The notes below the pieces were generated by a model. That model had not been told where the DNA came from. It did no database searches and saw nothing but the letters and a program-made list of their open reading frames with translations. Of a DNA stretch of 64,000 nt, positions 5,330-15,257 are shown in pieces. Every line of letters begins with the position of its first letter. The first letter of the stretch is position 1. A program made the translations under genes and the position numbers. Origin of the DNA: an uncultured SAR86 cluster bacterium (lineage in GTDB: Bacteria; Pseudomonadota; Gammaproteobacteria; Magnimaribacterales; TMED112); contig CACLXU010000001.1 of NCBI GenBank assembly GCA_902610995.1, positions 144,422 through 208,421 on the forward strand. The letters are read 5' to 3'.

Positions 5330-5405
5330 TGGTGGAGCTATGCGGGATCGAACCGCAGACCTCCTGCGTGCAAAGCAGGCGCTCTCCCAGCTGAGCTATA
5401 GCCCC
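5330..5405 (-). tRNA. tRNA-Ala (anticodon UGC)
   Basis: The reverse complement reads GGGGCTATAGCTCAGCTGGGAGAGCGCCTGCTTTGCACGCAGGAGGTCTGCGGTTCGATCCCGCATAGCTCCACCA. This is a canonical cloverleaf with a G3:U70 acceptor, anticodon loop CTTTGCACG and an encoded CCA. Confidence 0.95.
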
Positions 5406-6159: not shown

Positions 6160-6570
6160 TTAGTCTGCGAAATGTTTTTCTTTTTCTTCGTTGATAGTTT
6201 TGACTTCTGCACAGTACTCAGCGGTAGGTCTAGATAATAGTCTTCTTAAACCAATGGGCTCTCCTGACTCTAAGCAATATCCATAGTCACCTGATTTGAT
6301 CCTCATTATAGCTTTATCTATCTTAGGGAGTAATTTGGATTCTCTTTCAACGATCCTCAAGAAAAGCATAGAATCAATTTCATGCTGTGCCCTATCAACC
6401 TCATCACTACAAGAAGGGGGGTTACTGAGTCTATCTTTGGCATCCCTAATATGCGTAAGGGTTTCTTTCTTGAGATCATCTAGTAGATCTCTAAAGAAAT
6501 GAAGTTGCTCCTTATTCATATAGTTTTTCTTCGGAGCTTTTAAAATTTTTTCTTTAGTTAGCATAAGCAA
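6160..6570 (-). CDS. dksA: RNA polymerase-binding transcription factor DksA, Cys-depleted (CxxS...CxxV) variant
   Basis: 136 aa, colinear with E. coli DksA: YMNKEQLHFFRDLL, coiled-coil tip DEVDRA (DxxDxA) and C-terminal GYCLESGEPIGLRRLLSRPTAEYCAEVKT. The track start at 6570 is TTG; an ATG lies at 6564. Confidence 0.85.
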   Translation of the reverse strand: MLMLTKEKILKAPKKNYMNKEQLHFFRDLLDDLKKETLTHIRDAKDRLSNPPSCSDEVDRAQHEIDSMLFLRIVERESKLLPKIDKAIMRIKSGDYGYCLESGEPIGLRRLLSRPTAEYCAEVKTINEEKEKHFAD

Positions 6571-6633: not shown

Positions 6634-7920
6634 TTACATACTGTTTGCTTTATTGACACTCTTAGAAATGCCAAAACCAAGATACGTTAAATAAATTGCA
6701 AGAGGAATAATAGCTAGAGGAGCAGCATATGCAACCAGACCAAAAGAAAACATTAAATTAAAAAGCAGACCTCCAGAGGCATCGCCAAATCTATTTGTAA
6801 AAGTGTCAATAAAAACTGTGGATTTATATTTTTCCTTTGAATTCAGTGTTGTATAGACAGCCTCCCGAGCTGGTTTGTTTAACCCATACTCAAATGGTCG
6901 CATCACTGCTTGCAAAATTAAAAAAATAAGTACGGCTGAGGATCCTAATAAGATATCAGAGAAATAACCTGAAACTGCAAGAAAAGCCAAAGCAAAAATT
7001 AAACCATAAGCTGAAAGAACAAATTTTATCCCAAGAAAACTTGATCTAAGAATTGAAGCAGTAAGGAGTATTTGAATAAATAAAGTAACCAACGGCACAA
7101 TTGAGTCTGCCCTTCCGAATATTCTAGTTTTTTCGGCAGAATCATCCGTATAGTTATTTATAATTTCAAGCTGAAAGAACCAAAGTGCAGTTGAAAGACA
7201 TGTCCAAACGAATGCATAGATAACAAACTGCTGAATTAGAGGATTTGTACGTATTTGTGAAAACTGCTCGAGAGTATTTGATAGACTGTTATCAGCTGAC
7301 GTGCCAAAAAAGTTATCTTCTCTCTGAACACGTGATGAAAAAAAGATAGCCAGTAATAAAGATAATACTGCTATTAGGAGGGAAAGATTTTCTTTGTCAT
7401 AAAGAAATCCATCAACTAAGGCTCCCCCACATGAAGCACCTAATGAGCCAAATCCACTGATAATTCCAAAGAATTTTTTCCCATCCTCAATATCAAAAGA
7501 ATTAACGGTCATTGCCCAGAAAATAGCTACAACAAAAAAATTGAATATGTTATACCAGACATAGAAGAATGTTTTAATAGCTGAAATTTCTGGAAAATAG
7601 TTATAAACGAGGTAAAAACAACATAAACAAATGATAAAGAAGCCATAAATATAAGGTACTAGTTTGGTAAGACGAATTTTAGAAACTATTAGCGAATAAA
7701 TTGGATTAACCAGCAACATAACAATTACAATTATTAGTAAATAAAAGGGTAAATCACTAGTTCCAATATTTGCTGCTATTGTGTTTCTAAATGGTCTCAA
7801 AACAAACAATGAAAAAAGTACGAAAAAGAAAAATAAACCGGAGAAAACAGTATTCCTTGAGAAGAAAGAAAAGTTGTTAAAGTAGCTGTTAAAACCTTTA
7901 AGCATGATTCCTATAGGCAA
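6634..7920 (-). CDS. MFS-type carrier resembling the ATP:ADP antiporter / nucleotide transporter (NTT, TLC) family
   Basis: 428 aa with about 12 hydrophobic spans. It has colinear motif similarity to Rickettsia/Chlamydia Tlc proteins: LRPFRNTI (cf LRxxKD), FYVWYNIFNFFVVAIFWAMTVN...GKKFFGIISGFGSLG (cf FY..ELW....LFW.FAN....AKRFY..FG), and KYKSTVFIDTFTNRFGDASGG (cf K.K..ID...R.GKSGG). Its start overlaps the phoA stop by 10 nt. Confidence 0.5.
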   Translation of the reverse strand: MPIGIMLKGFNSYFNNFSFFSRNTVFSGLFFFFVLFSLFVLRPFRNTIAANIGTSDLPFYLLIIVIVMLLVNPIYSLIVSKIRLTKLVPYIYGFFIICLCCFYLVYNYFPEISAIKTFFYVWYNIFNFFVVAIFWAMTVNSFDIEDGKKFFGIISGFGSLGASCGGALVDGFLYDKENLSLLIAVLSLLLAIFFSSRVQREDNFFGTSADNSLSNTLEQFSQIRTNPLIQQFVIYAFVWTCLSTALWFFQLEIINNYTDDSAEKTRIFGRADSIVPLVTLFIQILLTASILRSSFLGIKFVLSAYGLIFALAFLAVSGYFSDILLGSSAVLIFLILQAVMRPFEYGLNKPAREAVYTTLNSKEKYKSTVFIDTFTNRFGDASGGLLFNLMFSFGLVAYAAPLAIIPLAIYLTYLGFGISKSVNKANSM

Positions 7921-9161
7921 GAGGCATTTTCTAAACTATCTATACCTAGTGCTTCTTTCATAGCAAAAAATATGTCTGTGTTATCCATAATGCCAGAAAA
8001 ATTTTCTGAGCCTGGCCCAAATGCAAAAACTGGAACCATGCCACCTGTATGAGATCCTATTCCAATGCCAGTATTCCAGGAAACATTCATTTTGCCTGTT
8101 GGACGATATCTAACATCCGTAGGTTCAATTAATAGGCCTCCAGTTTCATGGTCTGCTGTAACAATTAAAAGGGTGTCTGAGTTTTGTTTGGCAACTTCAA
8201 GGGCATCGTCGACAACCTCTTCAAATTCAGCCATTTCGATTAAAAAACTCTGAAAATCGTTATCGTGTGATCTCCAGTCAATCATTGAACCTTCAATAAG
8301 TGCAAAGTAACCTCTGCAACCGTTTGCAATATGCTCTAATGATTTTTTATGCACAAATTTAAACATGTCTAGGAGAGAAGGTTCTGATTCTTTTCTTACG
8401 AGCTCATCCTCAGCAAACAAACCAAAAATTCGTGATGATAGAGGAAATTCTAAATTTAAAGCTTCTTTGGTTTCAATTAAATTGTATTGATTTTTAATTT
8501 TTGAAATAAGATCTTCTTCATCTTCTCTAAATCCACCCTTCGATTTTGGATAAAAATAACCTTTCCCTCCACCAAGGATTAAATTAATCTTTGAATCAAA
8601 GATTGCTGTTGCGATTTTGTCTTTTTCATATCTTGAATCCACATGCGCTGCAAAAGCTGCAGGTGTTGCGTGAGTTATTTCTGAGGTTGCTACAAGAGAT
8701 GAGAAATATCCCTTTTCATTTAACATCTCTAATATATTTTTTACTGGTATTTTTTCAGGATTTACCCCCACATATCTATTTATAGTCTTAACCCCAGAAC
8801 TAAATGCAGTAGCTGAGGCAGCTGAGTCAGTTATAAGTGTATTTAAAGCATGCGTTTTAACTAAACCTGAAATAGGGAACTTATCAAATGCAGTAATATG
8901 GTTTGGGCCACCCTTCATAACTCTATAGGACGTAATGTGATTTGAACCCATTCCATCGCCAATTAAAAAGATAATATTTTTTGCCTTATTGGTTACAGGC
9001 TGAATATTCCGATTGGTTACTTTACTTTCAAAATCTATTTTGATGAGTTCTTTATCTTTTTTAGGAACCTCAAATAAAAATGGTGCATATAAATTAATTA
9101 GATATGCAGTTGCAGCCATAGTTATAAAAGCAGTAAGAAAATATTTAAGAAAACTTTTCAT
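7911..9161 (-). CDS. phoA: alkaline phosphatase, PhoA family (Zn/Mg-dependent), exported
   Basis: 416 aa. N-terminal signal/anchor, then DGMGSNH, TDSAASATAF (nucleophile Ser), IDWRSHDND, TADHETGG and GSHTGG. This is the complete PhoA-type metal-ligand set. Confidence 0.85.
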   Translation of the reverse strand: MKSFLKYFLTAFITMAATAYLINLYAPFLFEVPKKDKELIKIDFESKVTNRNIQPVTNKAKNIIFLIGDGMGSNHITSYRVMKGGPNHITAFDKFPISGLVKTHALNTLITDSAASATAFSSGVKTINRYVGVNPEKIPVKNILEMLNEKGYFSSLVATSEITHATPAAFAAHVDSRYEKDKIATAIFDSKINLILGGGKGYFYPKSKGGFREDEEDLISKIKNQYNLIETKEALNLEFPLSSRIFGLFAEDELVRKESEPSLLDMFKFVHKKSLEHIANGCRGYFALIEGSMIDWRSHDNDFQSFLIEMAEFEEVVDDALEVAKQNSDTLLIVTADHETGGLLIEPTDVRYRPTGKMNVSWNTGIGIGSHTGGMVPVFAFGPGSENFSGIMDNTDIFFAMKEALGIDSLENASCL

Positions 9162-9976
9162 TTCTGATCAAGAGATTTAGATTTCTTTTCAAGCTTTTTA
9201 TCTCTAGATATGGAGTAATCAAAGTCAATGATTGATCCCTCCCAATCTCCATACATAGGATTTGAAAACATATACCAAGAGACGCCCCAATAATCATCAT
9301 ATTTTTTAGTAACGCTAATTCTTTCAGCAGGTGAAAGATTATTTTCTTTAATATCAACAAAATCACCTAGGTTATCGCCAAACATCATTACAATTCTGTA
9401 ATCTCTAGCTAATAACTCTCTTCTTGAAGATTTATTGGAACCCCAATTATTTTCACCTCTAGATAAAATAAAGTCCTTTTTTTTCGGCAGATTTAGGCCA
9501 AGCTTCTGGTAATTTTTAATAGTTGCTTCTTCAATTTCCTTGACTCTATTTGTAACAAAGAAAATTTCTACGCCTTCTGAAAGAGCAAACTGAAGAAATT
9601 CAAGCGCACCTGGTAAAAATTCTGCTTGCTCCTCTTTGGCCCAGCTTACCCAACCATCTGGATAAGAAGTATTGTTTTTTATCAATCTTGCCTGGTAAGC
9701 GCTGTTATCCAGGACGGTTTGGTCAACATCAAGAATTATCGCGGGTGGCTTATTGTGATAATTATCTGTTTGTTCAAGTGCGGCAGTGTGATATTTGTTT
9801 TGAAGCAGTTCTTTTAAATTATTTTCTGCTGCTTTATAGATAGATTTAGAATTTGCATAAAACTCTGCAGATGACTGTACAAATAATGTTGCCATGAGAA
9901 GTTCATGATCTTTCTCATTACTATTCAGAGGTGTGCTGATTAAAATAAAAATGATTATTATTTTAAAAAATTTCAT
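9158..9976 (-). CDS. class C acid phosphatase / 5'-nucleotidase, e(P4) family (HAD superfamily), exported
   Basis: 272 aa. Signal peptide; ILDVDQTVLDNS (DxDxT) and GDNLGDF motifs of the DDDD phosphatase family. No lipobox Cys. ATGA overlap with phoA. Confidence 0.8.
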   Translation of the reverse strand: MKFFKIIIIFILISTPLNSNEKDHELLMATLFVQSSAEFYANSKSIYKAAENNLKELLQNKYHTAALEQTDNYHNKPPAIILDVDQTVLDNSAYQARLIKNNTSYPDGWVSWAKEEQAEFLPGALEFLQFALSEGVEIFFVTNRVKEIEEATIKNYQKLGLNLPKKKDFILSRGENNWGSNKSSRRELLARDYRIVMMFGDNLGDFVDIKENNLSPAERISVTKKYDDYWGVSWYMFSNPMYGDWEGSIIDFDYSISRDKKLEKKSKSLDQK

Positions 9977-9990
9977 AAGTCATTATATCC

Positions 9991-12570
9991 TTAATCTTTT
10001 GGGCTAAGCTCAAATTGAATATTGATTAATCTCCCCCTTGGATCATGTACTCTAGTATCAAAGCTAAAATCAGGTGCGTCATAGAGTTTTGGGGGCTGCT
10101 CATCAAAAAGGTTTATCAGAGAAAATGAGGTTGTTAAATCCAAACCCTCAAAAAGATTTTTAAATTTCTGTCTGTATGTAAAATCAAATACCAAAAAACT
10201 ACTAACCTTATTCTTATAACCCTTGCTAAGTGCACTATCCGGAATATTCCGCTCATTTGTATAGCCATCAATATATCTTGCAATTAAGCCTAATTCGTGA
10301 GGGGCATAATTCCATTGAATAAAAGAATTTATTCTTTTTTTTGGGATTGAGTGAGTATTGGCATCAAAGTTAAATCTGCCTACTCTATTTATCATGGCGC
10401 TGGTTCCGGCTCCAGGAGTTAAGAATTCAATAAAATTGGTACCTTTTATGATTAATTTTAAGTTTCCTAAATCATCAAGATCAAAATTCTCGTTAAAAGA
10501 AAAATCAAATCCAGAAACTTTTGTGGATGTCTCATTAAAGTAAGTTGTTGTCACACCTATTAATTCTCCAGATTCGTTTCTTGTTATGCTTGATCCATAG
10601 GGATCATTTATTAAAAGGGCTTGAGAGCTTTCTGATTCAACTCTATTTTTATAGTCAATGGACCAGTAATCTATAATTAATTCTCGTTTAAAAGAATTAA
10701 GCTCTATTCCAAAGTTTAAATTGTCCGCCAGTGAAGGTTTCAGCTCAGGGTTTCCAATTTGTGCTTGGCGTACAAATATATTGTCATCAAAATCTCTGAC
10801 ACTTCCTAGATTAATTTCACTGGAAAACATTTGAGCCATAGATGGCATTGAAAAAGATGATCCATAGGACCCTCTAAGGGAAATTAAATCATTTAATTTA
10901 GACTTAAATGACATTTTAGGATCAAATGAGGAATAGTTATCTGATTCTTCATATCTTCCTGAAATCATTAAATCAATGAAATCAGTAGGGCTTGATCTTC
11001 CTTCAAAAAATAGTGCAAACTTAGTTCTATCAGTAGCAACATTCTTACCACCACCTAGGAAAAAGAGATCGGCAATTTTTGTAATTTTCCCATCTGCATC
11101 AAACTCAGCTCTAGCAATATCGTTATATGTAATATCTAAATTTTCAAAACTAATTTGGGAACCAAATGCTAGGTAGTAGTTATTGATGCTTGTCCTGCCA
11201 ATAATATCTAGCACTGATAAAGTCCCGATTTTTTCCGAAATTTCTGCACCCCTCACATAATCAATTAAAGATTGTGAGTTTTTATTAGGCTCAAATATGT
11301 TCCATTGTTCATTTCCAGAGGCACCTCCATTCCCACTCATAGCATCTTGAAACCTCGAATCAATTATATCGGGTCTATTGTGTTTATTTTTATGTTCGCT
11401 AGTTGTAAGTGAAAATTCAAAATCAAAATCTTCTACTACTTTATAAAATGAATAATTTAGATGGTATTGAGAAATATCTTTTGGGGAAAATGGTGAGGGA
11501 AATTGAGACCCTAAAGGTCGACCTCTCCACTTTACCGGAACATTAAAAGGGGATGATCCCTCCCCTGGCTGAATAAGTCGAGTTAAATATGGTAGCGCTG
11601 GATAAGAAGGTGATTGGGGATTATCAATTACCCTTATATTTGAAGTCATCAAAGTAAAGTTATGAGAATTATTTCTAAGATTCAGGAAAAATTTTGAGTG
11701 ATCTTCAGTATTGACGATATTAAATCTCGTCCCGTAAAGAAATCTACAAAATCCTTGCAAAACACCACCATTCTCTACGCAGTTTGGATCGGGGACAATC
11801 TGATTTGCAGTGTATACACCCTCATATAAACCTTCTTCAATTTCGTCTGGTGCAGTAGTTATAAAAGTATTACCAAGACCACTTAAGGCTAATTCTGCTA
11901 TATTTGGAATTTCAGAAGCTGATAAAGGTGATCTATCAAGAATATTTGCAGCAAATACAAGGTCCCAGTTATTAATTTCAGAACCATACAGAAGACCAAA
12001 GTTTTGGTCCTTTTGACTGTAATTGGTTGTAGATTGATCGCCAAAACGAATTTTTATTCCTTTAAAGTCGTTATGAGTCAAAAAATTAATAACACCTGCG
12101 ACAGCATCTGATCCATAAGACGAGGTAGCTCCTTCTTTTAAAATTTCTATTTTTTTGAATGCAATTTCAGGGATGATATTTATATCAATGTATCCTTCAC
12201 CCTCATTGGAGGGTGTTCCTGCAAAGGTGTGTCTTTTTGAATTTATTAATAACAATGTTGAAGCATGATCCAATCCTCTTAACGTAATTGATGCCATCCC
12301 TTGATCAACTCCTCCCAATGTGTTTGATTGAAAGCGTGAACCAGAAGATATATTTAAGTATTTACTGATTTCAGCTAAGTTTGTAATGTTAAGTGAATTG
12401 AAGTCTGTGTCTGTAATGATTTCAGTTGGACTAATGTTTTCAGTAGCTTCACCCAGAAGAGAGCCAGTAATTACAACTTCTTCTATGTCATTTTCATCAC
12501 TAGAAATTAGCCCAAGAAAAAGAATTATTTTCAAAAACAGCAGGTTGTGACTTTTTATTTTCATCATCAT
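9991..12570 (-). CDS. TonB-dependent outer-membrane receptor
   Basis: 859 aa. Signal peptide; TonB-box-like IEEVVITGS; plug motifs (ASITLRGL, IEILKEGATSSYGSDAVAGVINF); long barrel region of alternating aromatic/polar strands. The stop lies 14 nt before the acid phosphatase start. Confidence 0.85.
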   Translation of the reverse strand: MMMKIKSHNLLFLKIILFLGLISSDENDIEEVVITGSLLGEATENISPTEIITDTDFNSLNITNLAEISKYLNISSGSRFQSNTLGGVDQGMASITLRGLDHASTLLLINSKRHTFAGTPSNEGEGYIDINIIPEIAFKKIEILKEGATSSYGSDAVAGVINFLTHNDFKGIKIRFGDQSTTNYSQKDQNFGLLYGSEINNWDLVFAANILDRSPLSASEIPNIAELALSGLGNTFITTAPDEIEEGLYEGVYTANQIVPDPNCVENGGVLQGFCRFLYGTRFNIVNTEDHSKFFLNLRNNSHNFTLMTSNIRVIDNPQSPSYPALPYLTRLIQPGEGSSPFNVPVKWRGRPLGSQFPSPFSPKDISQYHLNYSFYKVVEDFDFEFSLTTSEHKNKHNRPDIIDSRFQDAMSGNGGASGNEQWNIFEPNKNSQSLIDYVRGAEISEKIGTLSVLDIIGRTSINNYYLAFGSQISFENLDITYNDIARAEFDADGKITKIADLFFLGGGKNVATDRTKFALFFEGRSSPTDFIDLMISGRYEESDNYSSFDPKMSFKSKLNDLISLRGSYGSSFSMPSMAQMFSSEINLGSVRDFDDNIFVRQAQIGNPELKPSLADNLNFGIELNSFKRELIIDYWSIDYKNRVESESSQALLINDPYGSSITRNESGELIGVTTTYFNETSTKVSGFDFSFNENFDLDDLGNLKLIIKGTNFIEFLTPGAGTSAMINRVGRFNFDANTHSIPKKRINSFIQWNYAPHELGLIARYIDGYTNERNIPDSALSKGYKNKVSSFLVFDFTYRQKFKNLFEGLDLTTSFSLINLFDEQPPKLYDAPDFSFDTRVHDPRGRLINIQFELSPKD

Positions 12571-12628: not shown

Positions 12629-12650
12629 GGGAGAGGCTAAAGCCTCTCCC
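12629..12650 (-). terminator. GC-rich hairpin directly after the His-rich receptor gene (candidate terminator or RNA-stability element)
   Basis: GGGAGAGGCT-AA-AGCCTCTCCC is a perfect 10-nt inverted repeat (realistically 9 bp plus a 4-nt loop). It begins 8 nt after the stop at 12658 and is the only GC-rich element in the 87-bp spacer. No clean U-tract follows on the minus strand. Confidence 0.4.
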
Positions 12651-12657
12651 AAAATAA

Positions 12658-14955
12658 TTAGAAGTCTAATCTAAATTTCACACCAAAATTCAGTCCAGGA
12701 AGAGGTACCTGGTCTTTTACATAAGATGCGTGGTTTCTTGCAACTTCATCAAGAATATTATTTGCGAATAATGAAACTCTAAGGTTATTACCTGAGGCGA
12801 GGTTATAATCCTTACCAACTCTAAGGTTTAACATTTTATAGCCATCAGTTATTGTTTCACCATCACCAATTTCCTTTTGTGCTTCTACGTCCTTAAGAGT
12901 GAGGTTAAGTCTTAAATCGCTAGCTACATAAGATAAACTATATAGATTTCTGGCAGGTGTGATTCTTGGAATATTTTCACCATCGGAAAATTCTCCATTA
13001 ACTACATCTCTTCCAAAGGAGAGCTCAAGCTCGCCTGATGCAAGGATAAATCTTCTACCAAATTCAAATTCATAACCATTAAAATCAGCGTCTTGCTGAA
13101 GAAAATCTGCATGAATTAGACCTCCATGATCATCATGTCCCTCGTGCTCATCATGATCTTCATCGCCATGATCCTCATCGTGATGGTCCTCGTCCATGTG
13201 TTCAAGCTCATCTTGCAGATAGATATAATTTGAAATGCTATTTTGAAATGCAGTAAACTGTCCAAAAAAGTTTCCATCATCATAGAACAATGTCCCTTCA
13301 AAATTATTGCCTCTTTCTGGATCTAGGTTTACATCACCAGTTTCAAATCTACCTCGTGCTAAGTGTGGTCCATTCATTGCTAAATTTGTGCTAGAAGGTG
13401 CATTTGCAACGCTTGAAAAACTTACATCAAAGCTCATTGAATCATTGATCTGTTTTCTGAGACTTGCAGAGAAACTATATTCTTCATAAGTATTATCAAA
13501 AAATACTTCTTCCATTTCATGATGTTCATCCTCGTGCTCATCACCATGCTCGTCACCATGATCATCATCGTGATGCTCTTCTTCATGATGTTCTGTTATG
13601 GAACCTTTTCGATTTACTGAGTCATACCTTACCCCAAGATCCAAATCAAAATCTCCAGGCAAATCAGTGCCAAGATAATATCCGATGTTGAACTCTTCAC
13701 TTTGAACTGGGTTCATGAAAGCTTCAGCACCAACTATTGCCTCATCCATCTCTAAGAAATTAACCATCACCTTTGCAGAATGAGAATTTCTGAATGGCGC
13801 AAAGTCAAAGATTGCACCAAATTCTGTTGCATCATTTGTAAATACTGTAGGTCCTTCCTCATGTCCATGATCATCATGATCTTCACCTTCATGCTCATCA
13901 CCGTGTTCGTCTCCATGTTCTTCAGCATGCTGTTCTGAAAATGCATACTCAGTGTCCCTAAAGAAGTAGTCAACACTGTTTACCAAGCTACCATTAACAT
14001 TAAAACTACCTTGAAGATTAACAGCCTGTGAATCTGTGAAGGCATAAATTCTCTCACCTTCATGCTCATCACCATGCTCATCACCATGATCTTCATCGCC
14101 ATGCTCATCACCATGCTCATCACCATGCTCTTCACCATGATCATCGCCATGGAATGGAATTCCATATACTGTTTCTTGGTCCTCTAGAGATATACCAAAA
14201 TATCCCCAGTCACCTACTCTAGAAACCCCAAATCTTGAAGTTGTTGATCCAAAATCAGAATTTGCAAGAAAGCCCATGTCTTCTTCATGCTCGTCATGAT
14301 CTTCATCTTCGTGCTCTTCCTCAGAATGGATAATGGCACCATTTGGAATATCATAGTTTCCAAATTGAGAATCCTTAAATGAAAAGGTGAGATTTAACCC
14401 ACCGACATTATTTTCATAGAAAAAGTTCTTGGAATCACCCTCATTAACAGTTTGAAATTCAACACCCAGACCGCCAGCTTGCTCCTCAAAATTTTTCTGA
14501 GAAATAGTGTTATCAATGATATTGACAACACCTCCAAGTGCGCCTTTTGCATAAAGCAATGATGAAGGTCCTCGAATTATTTCTATTTGTCTTATATTAA
14601 AAAGGTCAACTTCATTAAGATGGTCAGCACCCATGCCAGCAACATCGGCAACACTAAGACCATTTCTCAGAATTTTTACCCTTCCATCCAGCAACCCACG
14701 TATAGCAGGCTGACCAACTGCAGCTCCATAATCTACTGAAGATACTCCTAAAAGATCATCAATCGATTCACCTAAACTCTGTGTGCCCGTATCGCCAAGT
14801 TCTTCACCATTTACGATATGGATTGGATCCCCTATTTCAGAAAGTTGTCTGTCTTCGTCAGTTAGTGACGAGGTTACGACAACTTCTTCGACCTCTTGTG
14901 TTTCGACTATGAATGTGAGCGAAACAAATAAACTTATAATTAATATTTTTTTCAT
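12658..14955 (-). CDS. TonB-dependent receptor with five His/Asp/Glu-rich inserts (candidate divalent-metal, ZnuD-like, receptor)
   Basis: 765 aa. Signal peptide; TonB-box-like EEVVVTSS; plug IEIIRGPSSLLYAKGALGGVVNII; canonical C-terminus GVKFRLDF. It carries five H/D/E/G low-complexity blocks (listed as repeat features). Confidence 0.85.
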   Translation of the reverse strand: MKKILIISLFVSLTFIVETQEVEEVVVTSSLTDEDRQLSEIGDPIHIVNGEELGDTGTQSLGESIDDLLGVSSVDYGAAVGQPAIRGLLDGRVKILRNGLSVADVAGMGADHLNEVDLFNIRQIEIIRGPSSLLYAKGALGGVVNIIDNTISQKNFEEQAGGLGVEFQTVNEGDSKNFFYENNVGGLNLTFSFKDSQFGNYDIPNGAIIHSEEEHEDEDHDEHEEDMGFLANSDFGSTTSRFGVSRVGDWGYFGISLEDQETVYGIPFHGDDHGEEHGDEHGDEHGDEDHGDEHGDEHEGERIYAFTDSQAVNLQGSFNVNGSLVNSVDYFFRDTEYAFSEQHAEEHGDEHGDEHEGEDHDDHGHEEGPTVFTNDATEFGAIFDFAPFRNSHSAKVMVNFLEMDEAIVGAEAFMNPVQSEEFNIGYYLGTDLPGDFDLDLGVRYDSVNRKGSITEHHEEEHHDDDHGDEHGDEHEDEHHEMEEVFFDNTYEEYSFSASLRKQINDSMSFDVSFSSVANAPSSTNLAMNGPHLARGRFETGDVNLDPERGNNFEGTLFYDDGNFFGQFTAFQNSISNYIYLQDELEHMDEDHHDEDHGDEDHDEHEGHDDHGGLIHADFLQQDADFNGYEFEFGRRFILASGELELSFGRDVVNGEFSDGENIPRITPARNLYSLSYVASDLRLNLTLKDVEAQKEIGDGETITDGYKMLNLRVGKDYNLASGNNLRVSLFANNILDEVARNHASYVKDQVPLPGLNFGVKFRLDF
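13123..13209 (-). repeat. His/acidic coding block 5 (aa 583-611 ELEHMDEDHHDEDHGDEDHDEHEGHDDHG)
   Basis: Coordinates derived from the translation of the receptor ORF. Confidence 0.9.
13510..13593 (-). repeat. His/acidic coding block 4 (aa 455-482 EHHEEEHHDDDHGDEHGDEHEDEHHEME)
   Basis: Read from the translation. The DNA contains ctcatcaccatg and ctcgtcaccatg in tandem. Confidence 0.9.
13852..13935 (-). repeat. His/acidic coding block 3 (aa 341-368 EQHAEEHGDEHGDEHEGEDHDDHGHEEG)
   Basis: Read from the translation. The DNA contains near-copies of the same 12-nt unit (ctcatcaccgtg, ttcgtctccatg). Confidence 0.9.
14053..14151 (-). repeat. His/acidic coding block 2 (aa 269-301), tandem 12-nt HGDE repeats
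   Basis: The plus strand shows ctcatcaccatg (reverse complement CATGGTGATGAG = HGDE) four times exactly, as two tandem pairs, plus degenerate copies (ctcttcaccatg, atcatcgccatg). The protein reads HGDDHGEEHGDEHGDEHGDEDHGDEHGDEHEGE. Confidence 0.9.
14278..14328 (-). repeat. His/acidic coding block 1 (aa 210-226 HSEEEHEDEDHDEHEED)
   Basis: Coordinates derived from the translation of the receptor ORF. Confidence 0.9.
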
Positions 14956-14990: not shown

Positions 14991-15257
14991 CTAATCTTTC
15001 TGAGGAGGCGCTCTGGAGTGTGCACTTCTATGAGTTTTTTTAAAGTTGGATTGTATTGATGATTTTGATTTTAAATCAATGGGTAATTCGTTTTTTTCAA
15101 ATTTACTTGTTAATGAATTTAATTCAGATTCTTCACATGCAAGGCATTCAATTACAGTTTGTTCCTCAATCTCATGGTGATCATGAAGCAGAGGTTCAGC
15201 AATTAAGCCAAATGAAAGAAAAATTGTAAAAACTAAATTCTTACTGCTGTCCAACAT
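14991..15257 (-). CDS. small exported His/Cys protein, unknown function, first gene of the receptor locus
   Basis: 88 aa. N-terminal hydrophobic segment (LVFTIFLSFGLIA), then HDHHEIEE and a CxxC (ECLACEE), with a basic C-terminal tail. It lies 35 nt upstream of the His-rich receptor on the same strand. I recognise no family. Confidence 0.4.
   Translation of the reverse strand: MLDSSKNLVFTIFLSFGLIAEPLLHDHHEIEEQTVIECLACEESELNSLTSKFEKNELPIDLKSKSSIQSNFKKTHRSAHSRAPPQKD

Follow-up and report, generated by a model that had tools for sequence, protein, structure and literature searches.

A compact TonB receptor-phosphatase-carrier block in a SAR86 genome and the possible role of its divergent NTT-like carrier

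What would a relative of the NTT nucleotide transporters, a family considered emblematic of intracellular parasitism, do directly behind two exported phosphatases in a free-living oligotroph? The question is raised by a locus at positions 6634-12570 of a 64,000-nucleotide stretch of DNA from an uncultured SAR86 cluster bacterium (GenBank assembly GCA_902610995.1, contig CACLXU010000001.1, positions 144,422 to 208,421 of the forward strand), which at its full length is referred to here as the window. SAR86 bacteria rank among the surface ocean's most abundant heterotrophs and are hard to grow, and their use of dissolved organic phosphorus and nucleotides has so far largely been inferred from gene lists. 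The original prediction, made from the letters of the window alone, described the locus as a four-gene operon that scavenges organophosphates or nucleotides across the envelope, with an NTT-like carrier for the inner-membrane step. Our analysis upholds the gene block and the kinship of the carrier, and it makes nucleotides and inorganic phosphate (Pi) doubtful as what the carrier moves.

The four genes, taken from the listing of open reading frames (ORFs), are the following:

9991-12570, minus strand: TonB-dependent receptor of 859 amino acids (aa), with PF07715 Plug and PF00593 barrel domains
9158-9976, minus strand: class C (HAD-IIIB) acid phosphatase of 272 aa, PF03767
7911-9161, minus strand: PhoA-type alkaline phosphatase of 416 aa, PF00245
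6634-7905, minus strand: 12-helix MFS carrier of 423 aa when counted from ATG 7905, placed by TLC/NTT profiles and predicted fold

The listing bears out the predicted compact same-strand block at 6634-12570, and the junctions, read straight from the window sequence, agree with the prediction in two of three cases. The receptor ends with TAA at 9993-9991 and is followed after 14 nt by the ATG of the acid phosphatase at 9976, and the end of the acid phosphatase gene has ATGA (9161-9158) in common with the start of phoA, an overlap of 4 nt. The third junction depends on the start codon of the carrier: phoA stops with TAG at 7913-7911, and the claimed 10-nt overlap exists only if the carrier begins at TTG 7920 (6634-7920, minus strand, 428 aa), whereas from ATG 7905 a gap of 5 nt separates the two genes. 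AGGA stands just before ATG 7905 and overlaps the phoA stop, and the same start is called for the 95% identical carrier P0001 and in L098, a locus of the same species (gap 5 nt). We take ATG 7905 as the start of the carrier; the packing is tight with either codon. The genes lie on one strand with short or overlapping junctions, no internal terminator and a conserved order, which are the marks of an operon, and we regard them as a compact chromosomal block with its own upstream boundary, operon status being assigned by layout. In scans for sigma-70 promoters and terminators, promoter-like sites were rarer than in shuffled sequences and nothing decisive appeared inside the block. The dksA gene begins 63-69 nt past the carrier, depending on the start codon chosen, and a promoter-like site lies within this gap.

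Is this arrangement peculiar to one genome? We searched 93 loci of 17 kb with the window proteins by tblastn, measured the junctions and placed the carriers on a neighbour-joining tree; in a scan with each species represented by one genome, the window fell into the SAR86 cluster, with MED-G79 and AG-337-J15 as the nearest genomes. In about 30 species-level SAR86 genomes, with carrier identities of 52-95%, the order is a ZnuD-like second receptor (without a match in three genomes), the receptor, the acid phosphatase, PhoA in some, the carrier and dksA. The receptor is kept upstream of the phosphatase in most linked loci. Spacing is conserved together with order: acid phosphatase and carrier are -11 to +23 nt apart in every genome lacking PhoA, acid phosphatase and PhoA are at -4 or -8 nt in every genome possessing it, and PhoA and carrier are separated by 5-45 nt, except in one clade at 412-436 nt. 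Conserved order and tight spacing across so many species exclude a chance arrangement and provide the synteny in relatives on which the predicted operon depended. The predicted unit of four genes is, however, upheld only for receptor, acid phosphatase and carrier: PhoA, inserted exactly between acid phosphatase and carrier where it occurs, has a scattered distribution on the tree, which implies several gains or losses and leaves a conserved core of three genes. L098 has a block identical in arrangement to that of the window. L099 has an oligopeptide ABC transporter where dksA would follow downstream, and the distance from PhoA to carrier is still 10 nt, so the carrier travels with the phosphatases and not with dksA.

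Two lineages vary the theme. The one with the wide gap between PhoA and carrier (L009, L010, L022, L029, L030 and L032, the gap lying at about 7590-8000) holds in this gap a 120-aa ORF on the opposite strand that has no Pfam match. The lineage of L011 and L012 (1-2376 and 6723-7124) has a MerC-like gene between receptor and acid phosphatase and, about 5 kb upstream of the block, a cluster of a receptor, a PnuC (NMN_transporter) gene and an APH/choline-kinase-like gene.

What kind of carrier, then, closes the block? The profile check that accompanied the original prediction comes out negative for the window protein itself: it has no match to PF03219 even at E<=10, its sole Pfam match being MFS_1 at E 0.072, none in NCBIfam, TIGR00769 included, and none in a single-sequence search of the PDB. 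Its relatives are more informative. A word-indexed search returned 1,148 homologues, the best 120 of which are at least 53% identical, and 3 of 24 SAR86 homologues match TLC weakly (best E 0.0023). A profile of these 24 SAR86 carrier sequences finds Chlamydia pneumoniae NTT1 (CpNTT1) as the sole transporter match in the PDB, aligned in three colinear pieces at E 0.0022, the other listed match being a small non-MFS secretion-system protein at a non-significant E of 3.1, and hhalign pairs the profile with AtNTT1 at 79% probability across 379 columns. An exhaustive profile search extends the family to 4,850 clusters at E<=0.001. From the more distant relatives we assembled a second profile of 60 sequences, 24-30% identical apart from three SAR86-like ones at 30-54%; individually, 38 of these 60 match Pfam TLC (best 1e-18), 53 match MFS_1 and 35 match TIGR00769. 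Over its full length this second profile matches CpNTT1 at 2.5e-24 and AtNTT1 at 1.2e-21, with the next MFS match at 2e-5. All seven of the non-SAR86 relatives drawn from its search and scanned one by one (25-30% identity) pass the TLC cut-off of 21 bits, at 26-40 bits, and their MFS_1 scores are mostly under that model's cut-off.

The predicted structure points in the same direction. The AlphaFold (AF2) model of the carrier (pLDDT 73.5, pTM 0.77) has twelve membrane helices in a 6+6 arrangement, and NTT structures take the first five places among its Foldseek matches (E 9.7e-10, TM 0.79), followed by LacY at 3e-6. The carrier keeps LRxxR in helix 1, FW, KKFFG and KYK..FID...R.G, and the family profile aligns end to end with both AtNTT1 and CpNTT1, confirming the colinear NTT-like motifs that had been noticed by eye. 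The profile matches in the PDB, the five best folds and the relatives that pass TLC together uphold the claim that the carrier is NTT-like rather than a member of another MFS family. Judging from these alignments and the fold model, we place it as a remote, divergent member of the TLC/NTT superfamily, with the SAR86 proteins at the divergent edge of the TLC family. Compared with the known members (PF03219, TIGR00769, TCDB 2.A.12; AtNTT1, CpNTT1, Protochlamydia NTT4), it has in common the 12-helix MFS fold, motifs in helices 1, 4-5 and 10-11 and an alignment that is colinear from end to end. The SAR86 carriers differ in length, with about 410-428 aa as opposed to about 500, and in setting: the host of the window carrier is a free-living oligotroph, and the operon of the carrier also encodes exported phosphatases.

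Kinship in fold leaves the question of substrate, on which the charged residues of the family bear. According to the passages on AtNTT1 in PMC4256464 and PMC4776705, which cite Trentmann 2000, the conserved charged transmembrane residues K155, E245, E385 and K527 are needed for transport, and K527 is tied to the transport of nucleoside triphosphates and Pi. Residues 20-499 of chain 9j3j_A were rebuilt, and a unique offset of 84 puts K, E, E and K at all four numbers; in an hmmalign alignment to the family model, the corresponding residues of the window carrier are L61, N124, W247 and D380. The matching family columns of the 60 relatives hold F/Y/L, S/N, Y/W and D, the last in 59 of 60, with Glu in the remaining one. 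The alignment to the NTTs runs at about 15-25% identity, which leaves room for shifts by a single column in helices 2 and 4. Confidence is high for the alignment of the FID..x4..R.GD/K.GG motif in helix 11, and hhalign likewise pairs K527 with D380. The microsporidian carriers ThNTT1 and ThNTT3 provide a useful comparison: they have I/N/Y or I/V/Y at the first three positions, with the correct residues within 3-4 positions in both, and keep K527 (PMC4256464). As both retain K527 despite three changes, the reversal of charge at this position is the informative difference. The replacement of all four residues makes transport of nucleoside triphosphates or Pi by the SAR86 carrier doubtful, and with it the nucleotide or Pi step originally assigned to it; by its residues, we consider that the carrier is not an ATP/ADP exchanger, and the substrates suggested below are predictions from context.

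The partners of the carrier make up this context. In the receptor, Plug and barrel both score above their Pfam cut-offs, and by eye the N terminus shows a signal-like sequence followed by a TonB-box-like EEVVITGS. No substrate-specific receptor subfamily reached its cut-off in NCBIfam, and solved or characterised receptors match weakly and generically. The acid phosphatase matches PF03767 at 130.6 bits against a cut-off of 27 and keeps both Asp motifs of the bipartite four-Asp signature, ILDVDQTVL at 81 and GDNLGDF at 200. The label 'e(P4)-type' given to it originally holds as far as the class C family goes and not beyond. Its score against TIGR01533, the lipoprotein e(P4) equivalog, is 199.6 bits, under the cut-off of 216.05, and its closest solved relative is the class C enzyme of Bacillus anthracis (2i33, E 7e-41) rather than Haemophilus influenzae e(P4) (E 5e-24). 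The sequence is devoid of cysteine and so has no lipobox and cannot be a lipoprotein like e(P4). We therefore use the e(P4) label loosely and read the enzyme as exported and soluble, not lipid-anchored. Enzymes of the e(P4) type act on nicotinamide mononucleotide (NMN) and NADP, and the solved structure 3et4 is deposited as 'NADP phosphatase'.

PhoA matches PF00245 at 262.5 bits (cut-off 24.4, E 9e-78) and scores 178.8 against the E. coli PhoA equivalog, whose cut-off is 540. This compact PhoA keeps all its catalytic and metal-ligand motifs (DGMG, DSAASATA, HATPA, EGSMID, DHETGG, GSHTG), and among solved structures the cold-active phosphatases 2iuc and 3a52 are nearest to it. Its N terminus reads by eye as a signal or an anchor, and signal-like N termini are visible on both phosphatases, as had been claimed. 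Class C phosphatase genes of SAR86 are abundant in an estuary metagenome (PMC6438641).

Taken together, the parts suggest an envelope-spanning operon for the scavenging of phosphoesters, in which the carrier would import the dephosphorylated product; we find this reading plausible and put it forward tentatively, the substrates being proposed from the context. The receptor would bring a scarce phosphorylated organic compound into the periplasm, most likely nucleotides or esters of the pyridine-nucleotide type, and there the Mg-dependent class C enzyme, joined by Zn-dependent PhoA where present, would strip off the phosphate. The carrier would then import the remaining organic part, a product resembling a nucleoside or nicotinamide riboside, and the freed Pi would enter via Pst or Pit. 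Under phosphate limitation, SAR86 has transcripts of pstSCAB, phoBRU and pit (PMC12981677), so standard Pi uptake and a Pho system are present. A main claim specific for NAD or a vitamin was considered and not adopted, as nothing in the window fixes the substrate.

By analogy, the closest worked example of such a mechanism is the NAD/NMN route of H. influenzae, which is said to have been worked out by Kemmer et al. in 2001 and reportedly uses an outer-membrane porin, NadN, e(P4) and then PnuC. There, e(P4) makes nicotinamide riboside for PnuC. In both cases a phosphorylated nutrient of the nucleotide type would cross the outer membrane, a class C phosphatase would dephosphorylate it in the periplasm and a dedicated inner-membrane carrier would take up the uncharged or cationic riboside. 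The two differ in several respects: the Haemophilus genes are scattered whereas those of SAR86 form one operon, entry is by a porin there and by a TonB-dependent receptor here, and e(P4) is lipid-anchored and works with PnuC while the SAR86 phosphatase lacks a lipid anchor and is paired with an NTT-like carrier. Some SAR86 lineages also add PhoA.

Could the carrier instead move the phosphorylated compound, as the original prediction allowed? It would then take nucleoside mono- or diphosphates, NAD, NMN or another organophosphate, possibly against Pi, and would work in parallel to the phosphatases. The activity of e(P4)-type enzymes on NMN and NADP and the annotation of 3et4 fit such substrates, and the closest solved relatives of the carrier by sequence and by fold are nucleotide transporters, whose LRxxR, FW, KKFFG and KYK..FID...R.G motifs it retains; yet two phosphatases encoded just upstream would destroy the substrate first, and the window protein matches neither PF03219 nor TIGR00769. 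Family members outside the canonical clade do transport NAD (PMC5381601), and ThNTT1 and ThNTT3 show three of the four key positions changed (PMC4256464), but the position of K527 is Asp in 59 of 60 relatives and Glu in the other. On balance we think import of a phosphorylated substrate unlikely.

Several observations weigh against uptake of a dephosphorylated product by a dedicated operon. At the carrier, the case of ThNTT1 and ThNTT3 makes the loss of three residues non-decisive when taken alone, and Asp380 is family-wide and hence uninformative about a substrate specific to SAR86. Around the genes, the scanned loci yielded no Pho box, Zur box or riboswitch, and one clade has the wide gap between PhoA and carrier; the carrier of that lineage may have its own promoter. 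About 20 species of the same carrier clade have the carrier without a nearby receptor or phosphatase, in a GST/amidohydrolase/TauD context, and the sister clade at 34-39% identity, which includes the cultured HIMB1674, is never linked, its carriers lying next to TMEM164/Rieske/enoyl-CoA hydratase genes or after tolB-pal-cpoB-tRNA. Finally, SAR86 genomes are broadly collinear in this region (dksA, PhzF, PPIase, SDR), and this inherited order may account for some of the conserved adjacency.

Such observations lead to a second alternative, namely that the carrier has a housekeeping role, unrelated to those of the receptor and phosphatases, and merely lies, in a collinear and streamlined genome, behind an uptake cassette that evolves fast. 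The many unlinked SAR86 carriers (in GST/amidohydrolase, TMEM164/Rieske and tolB-pal-cpoB-tRNA contexts) and four distant relatives that stand alone on long contigs agree with it, as do the mosaic identities of the window proteins to those of other loci:

Window against L015 and L099: ZnuD-like receptor 47-48%, receptor 58%, acid phosphatase 50-52%, PhoA 59-60%, carrier 89%, dksA 84% (L015)
Window against L021: ZnuD-like receptor 74%, receptor 75%, acid phosphatase 74%, PhoA absent, carrier 74%, dksA 94%
Window against L098: ZnuD-like receptor 77%, receptor 99%, acid phosphatase 97%, PhoA 97%, carrier 95%, dksA outside the locus

These values suggest that adjacent genes do not have a single shared history, through either recombination within the locus or very unequal rates. 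What speaks against mere historical adjacency is that even deeply diverged genomes keep the overlap or near-overlap of stop and start codons, that insertion of PhoA leaves the packing unbroken, that the carrier remains with PhoA where dksA is lost, and that distant relatives are paired with exported enzymes far above chance. On the tree, the roughly 20 unlinked species form a single subclade nested among linked ones, which makes the linked state paraphyletic. Linkage was thus probably the ancestral condition in this clade and looks to have been lost once. We regard an adjacency without functional meaning as improbable.

A separate observation concerns L085 (5424-9242), from a distant SAR86 clade, where the carrier comes after tolB-pal-cpoB and a tRNA gene. 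In E. coli, this slot is occupied by nadA-pnuC, so that the position may be a faint hint toward a role with pyridine ribosides.

Do more distant members of the family also keep company with exported enzymes? We inspected 80 distant loci, comprising 76 metagenome loci (L104-L179, 25-32% identity) and four on megabase contigs. By tblastn, neither a class C phosphatase nor PhoA lies near the carrier at any of these 80 loci. Instead, an aldo/keto reductase (PF00248, about 300-340 aa) is present at 21 of them, most with a readable twin-arginine signal, and in 16 of the 21 it is on the same strand at <=200 nt from the carrier. A protein with the epimerase/dehydratase fold (PF01370, about 375-400 aa where complete) occurs at 11 of the 80 loci, with the twin-arginine signal readable in 7 and tight adjacency to the carrier in 8. 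In these partners, predicted to be exported by the twin-arginine translocation (Tat) pathway, the GxxGxxG motif and the aldo/keto reductase fold are intact. Counting only loci with at least 1.1 kb on both sides of the carrier, 22 of 47 have one partner or the other, and identities within the neighbour clusters go down to 37%, so many taxa are involved; at the four megabase-contig loci the carrier is alone and the context uninformative. Pairing with an exported enzyme at 22 of 47 loci makes such company a habit of the family, which weighs against a purely accidental adjacency in SAR86 and does not fix the substrate. From these neighbourhoods, an exported NAD(P)-fold enzyme and an NTT-like carrier look like a two-gene unit that has not been described, and in the literature we found no paper describing Tat-exported aldo-keto reductases.

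These partners also bring up a third alternative, in which the carrier serves the periplasmic enzymes themselves, either taking Pi inward or moving a cofactor or counter-substrate, such as a pyridine nucleotide, between cytoplasm and periplasm. The Tat-exported NAD(P)-fold partners, with GxxGxxG and the aldo/keto reductase fold intact, would suit a cofactor carrier, but neither phosphatase family needs an organic cofactor. Plastid and chlamydial NTTs do co-transport Pi (9j3m is an ADP/Pi-bound structure; PMC4256464), but the Pi-linked lysine is lost and SAR86 already has Pst and Pit (PMC12981677). We consider such a service role very unlikely.

If uptake of a dephosphorylated product is carried over from SAR86 to the wider family, a more general proposal results. 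A large, uncharacterised branch of the NTTs, comprising thousands of clusters at 50% identity and having Asp in place of the triphosphate-binding Lys, may in free-living bacteria have taken on a new function beside exported enzymes, as their partners in the inner membrane. In SAR86, a TonB receptor, a periplasmic nucleotidase or phosphatase and the carrier would harvest dissolved nucleotides or pyridine nucleotides as ribosides; elsewhere, the partner would be a Tat-exported NAD(P)-fold oxidoreductase. This generalization is speculative, and as a whole we think it somewhat unlikely. If true, it would mean a change of substrate class inside the NTT family, and SAR86 would gain a dedicated route for the use of dissolved nucleotides.

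How new is such an arrangement? TonB receptors, periplasmic hydrolases and an inner-membrane MFS transporter are combined for single substrate classes in the carbohydrate utilization (CUT) loci of Xanthomonas and Caulobacter and in the polysaccharide utilization loci (PULs) of Bacteroidota. The SAR86 block likewise couples a TonB-dependent receptor, hydrolases and an inner-membrane MFS carrier; it differs in using phosphomonoesterases in place of glycoside hydrolases and in having neither a regulator nor a SusD-like partner. Major, Embley & Williams (2017, PMC5381601) reported proteins with NTT domains across free-living bacteria, 45 of them from Gammaproteobacteria, with roles unknown, and noted that little of the diversity is covered by characterised NTTs. 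That survey covers sequences detectable with PF03219, including fusions to HEAT and cNMP-binding domains, and mentions neither SAR86 nor phosphatase operons nor a pairing with exported enzymes. The original suggestion that an NTT homologue tied to phosphatases in a free-living oligotroph was undescribed thus fails for the homologues, which have been published, and stands for the link to exported enzymes, of which no report was found. Our literature search also turned up no receptor-phosphatase-carrier operon, no mention of the Asp-for-Lys signature of the branch and no paper connecting SAR86 with NTT-like genes.

We see the SAR86 block as a variant of the utilisation locus centred on a TonB receptor that carries with it a functional lead for a large, mislabelled transporter family. 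Annotation pipelines call the relatives 'AAA family ATP:ADP antiporter', 'NTP/NDP exchange transporter' or 'MFS transporter', and since family members lack the charged NTT residues, the label 'ATP:ADP antiporter' is questionable. If it is wrong, corrections are due in metabolic reconstructions that take it as a sign of energy parasitism or nucleotide import. The block and the exported partners provide the first contextual clue to the role of this very large NTT-like family, and for one SAR86 receptor the block yields a concrete hypothesis that is testable by cloning.

The surroundings of the block comprise the following features:

12658-14955, minus strand: second TonB-dependent receptor, ZnuD-like (best NCBIfam match ZnuD, E 8.7e-48, far below the cut-off)
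12629-12650, minus strand: GC-rich hairpin GGGAGAGGC-TTTA-GCCTCTCCC, 8 nt past the stop of the upstream ZnuD-like receptor
6160-6570, minus strand: DksA, downstream of the carrier
5333-5405, minus strand: tRNA gene (65.6 bits), between genes for small DoxX-like/DUF2798-like membrane proteins and an amidohydrolase gene

The hairpin at 12629-12650 probably marks the 5' boundary of the transcription unit of the operon. It lacks a T-run and is not a canonical intrinsic terminator, but hairpins of other sequence occupy the same position in L021, L010, L030, L005 and L042.

Control of the block gave few leads. Upstream of the receptor, a search of 32 loci with the E. coli-type consensus, which may not be that of SAR86, found no convincing Pho box of the kind that the original prediction had proposed to look for: the best match in the window has 6 mismatches in 14 positions, and one clade comes to 3-4 mismatches. 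With the E. coli-type Zur box there was a single 3-mismatch match, far away, and fewer matches than expected by chance. Rfam models detected only tRNAs, and no riboswitch or other RNA upstream of receptor or carrier, in 5-16 kb of the window and in L001, L010, L063 and L085. A k-mer search of the upstream regions reached 7 of 10 regions at best, against a maximum of 6 in shuffled sequences, with only AT-rich words and the upstream coding end among the hits.

The neighbouring genes have features of their own. The ZnuD-like receptor (12658-14955) bears long His/Asp/Glu repeats (HGDEHGDEHGDEDHGDEH...), ZnuD being a zinc-piracy receptor, and between the window and L098 it is 77% identical, as against 99% for the receptor that follows it. 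It is preceded by an 88-aa ORF (14991-15257, minus strand) that contains HDHHE and CxxC motifs; L005, L009, L010, L098 and L099 have ORF calls of 86-89 aa at the matching place. On the other side of the block, DksA (6160-6570) retains two of the four zinc-finger cysteines (YGYCLESG...AEYCAEVK) and in this respect resembles the zinc-independent proteins of the DksA2 type; it is encoded close to the ZnuD-like receptor and to the zinc enzyme PhoA.

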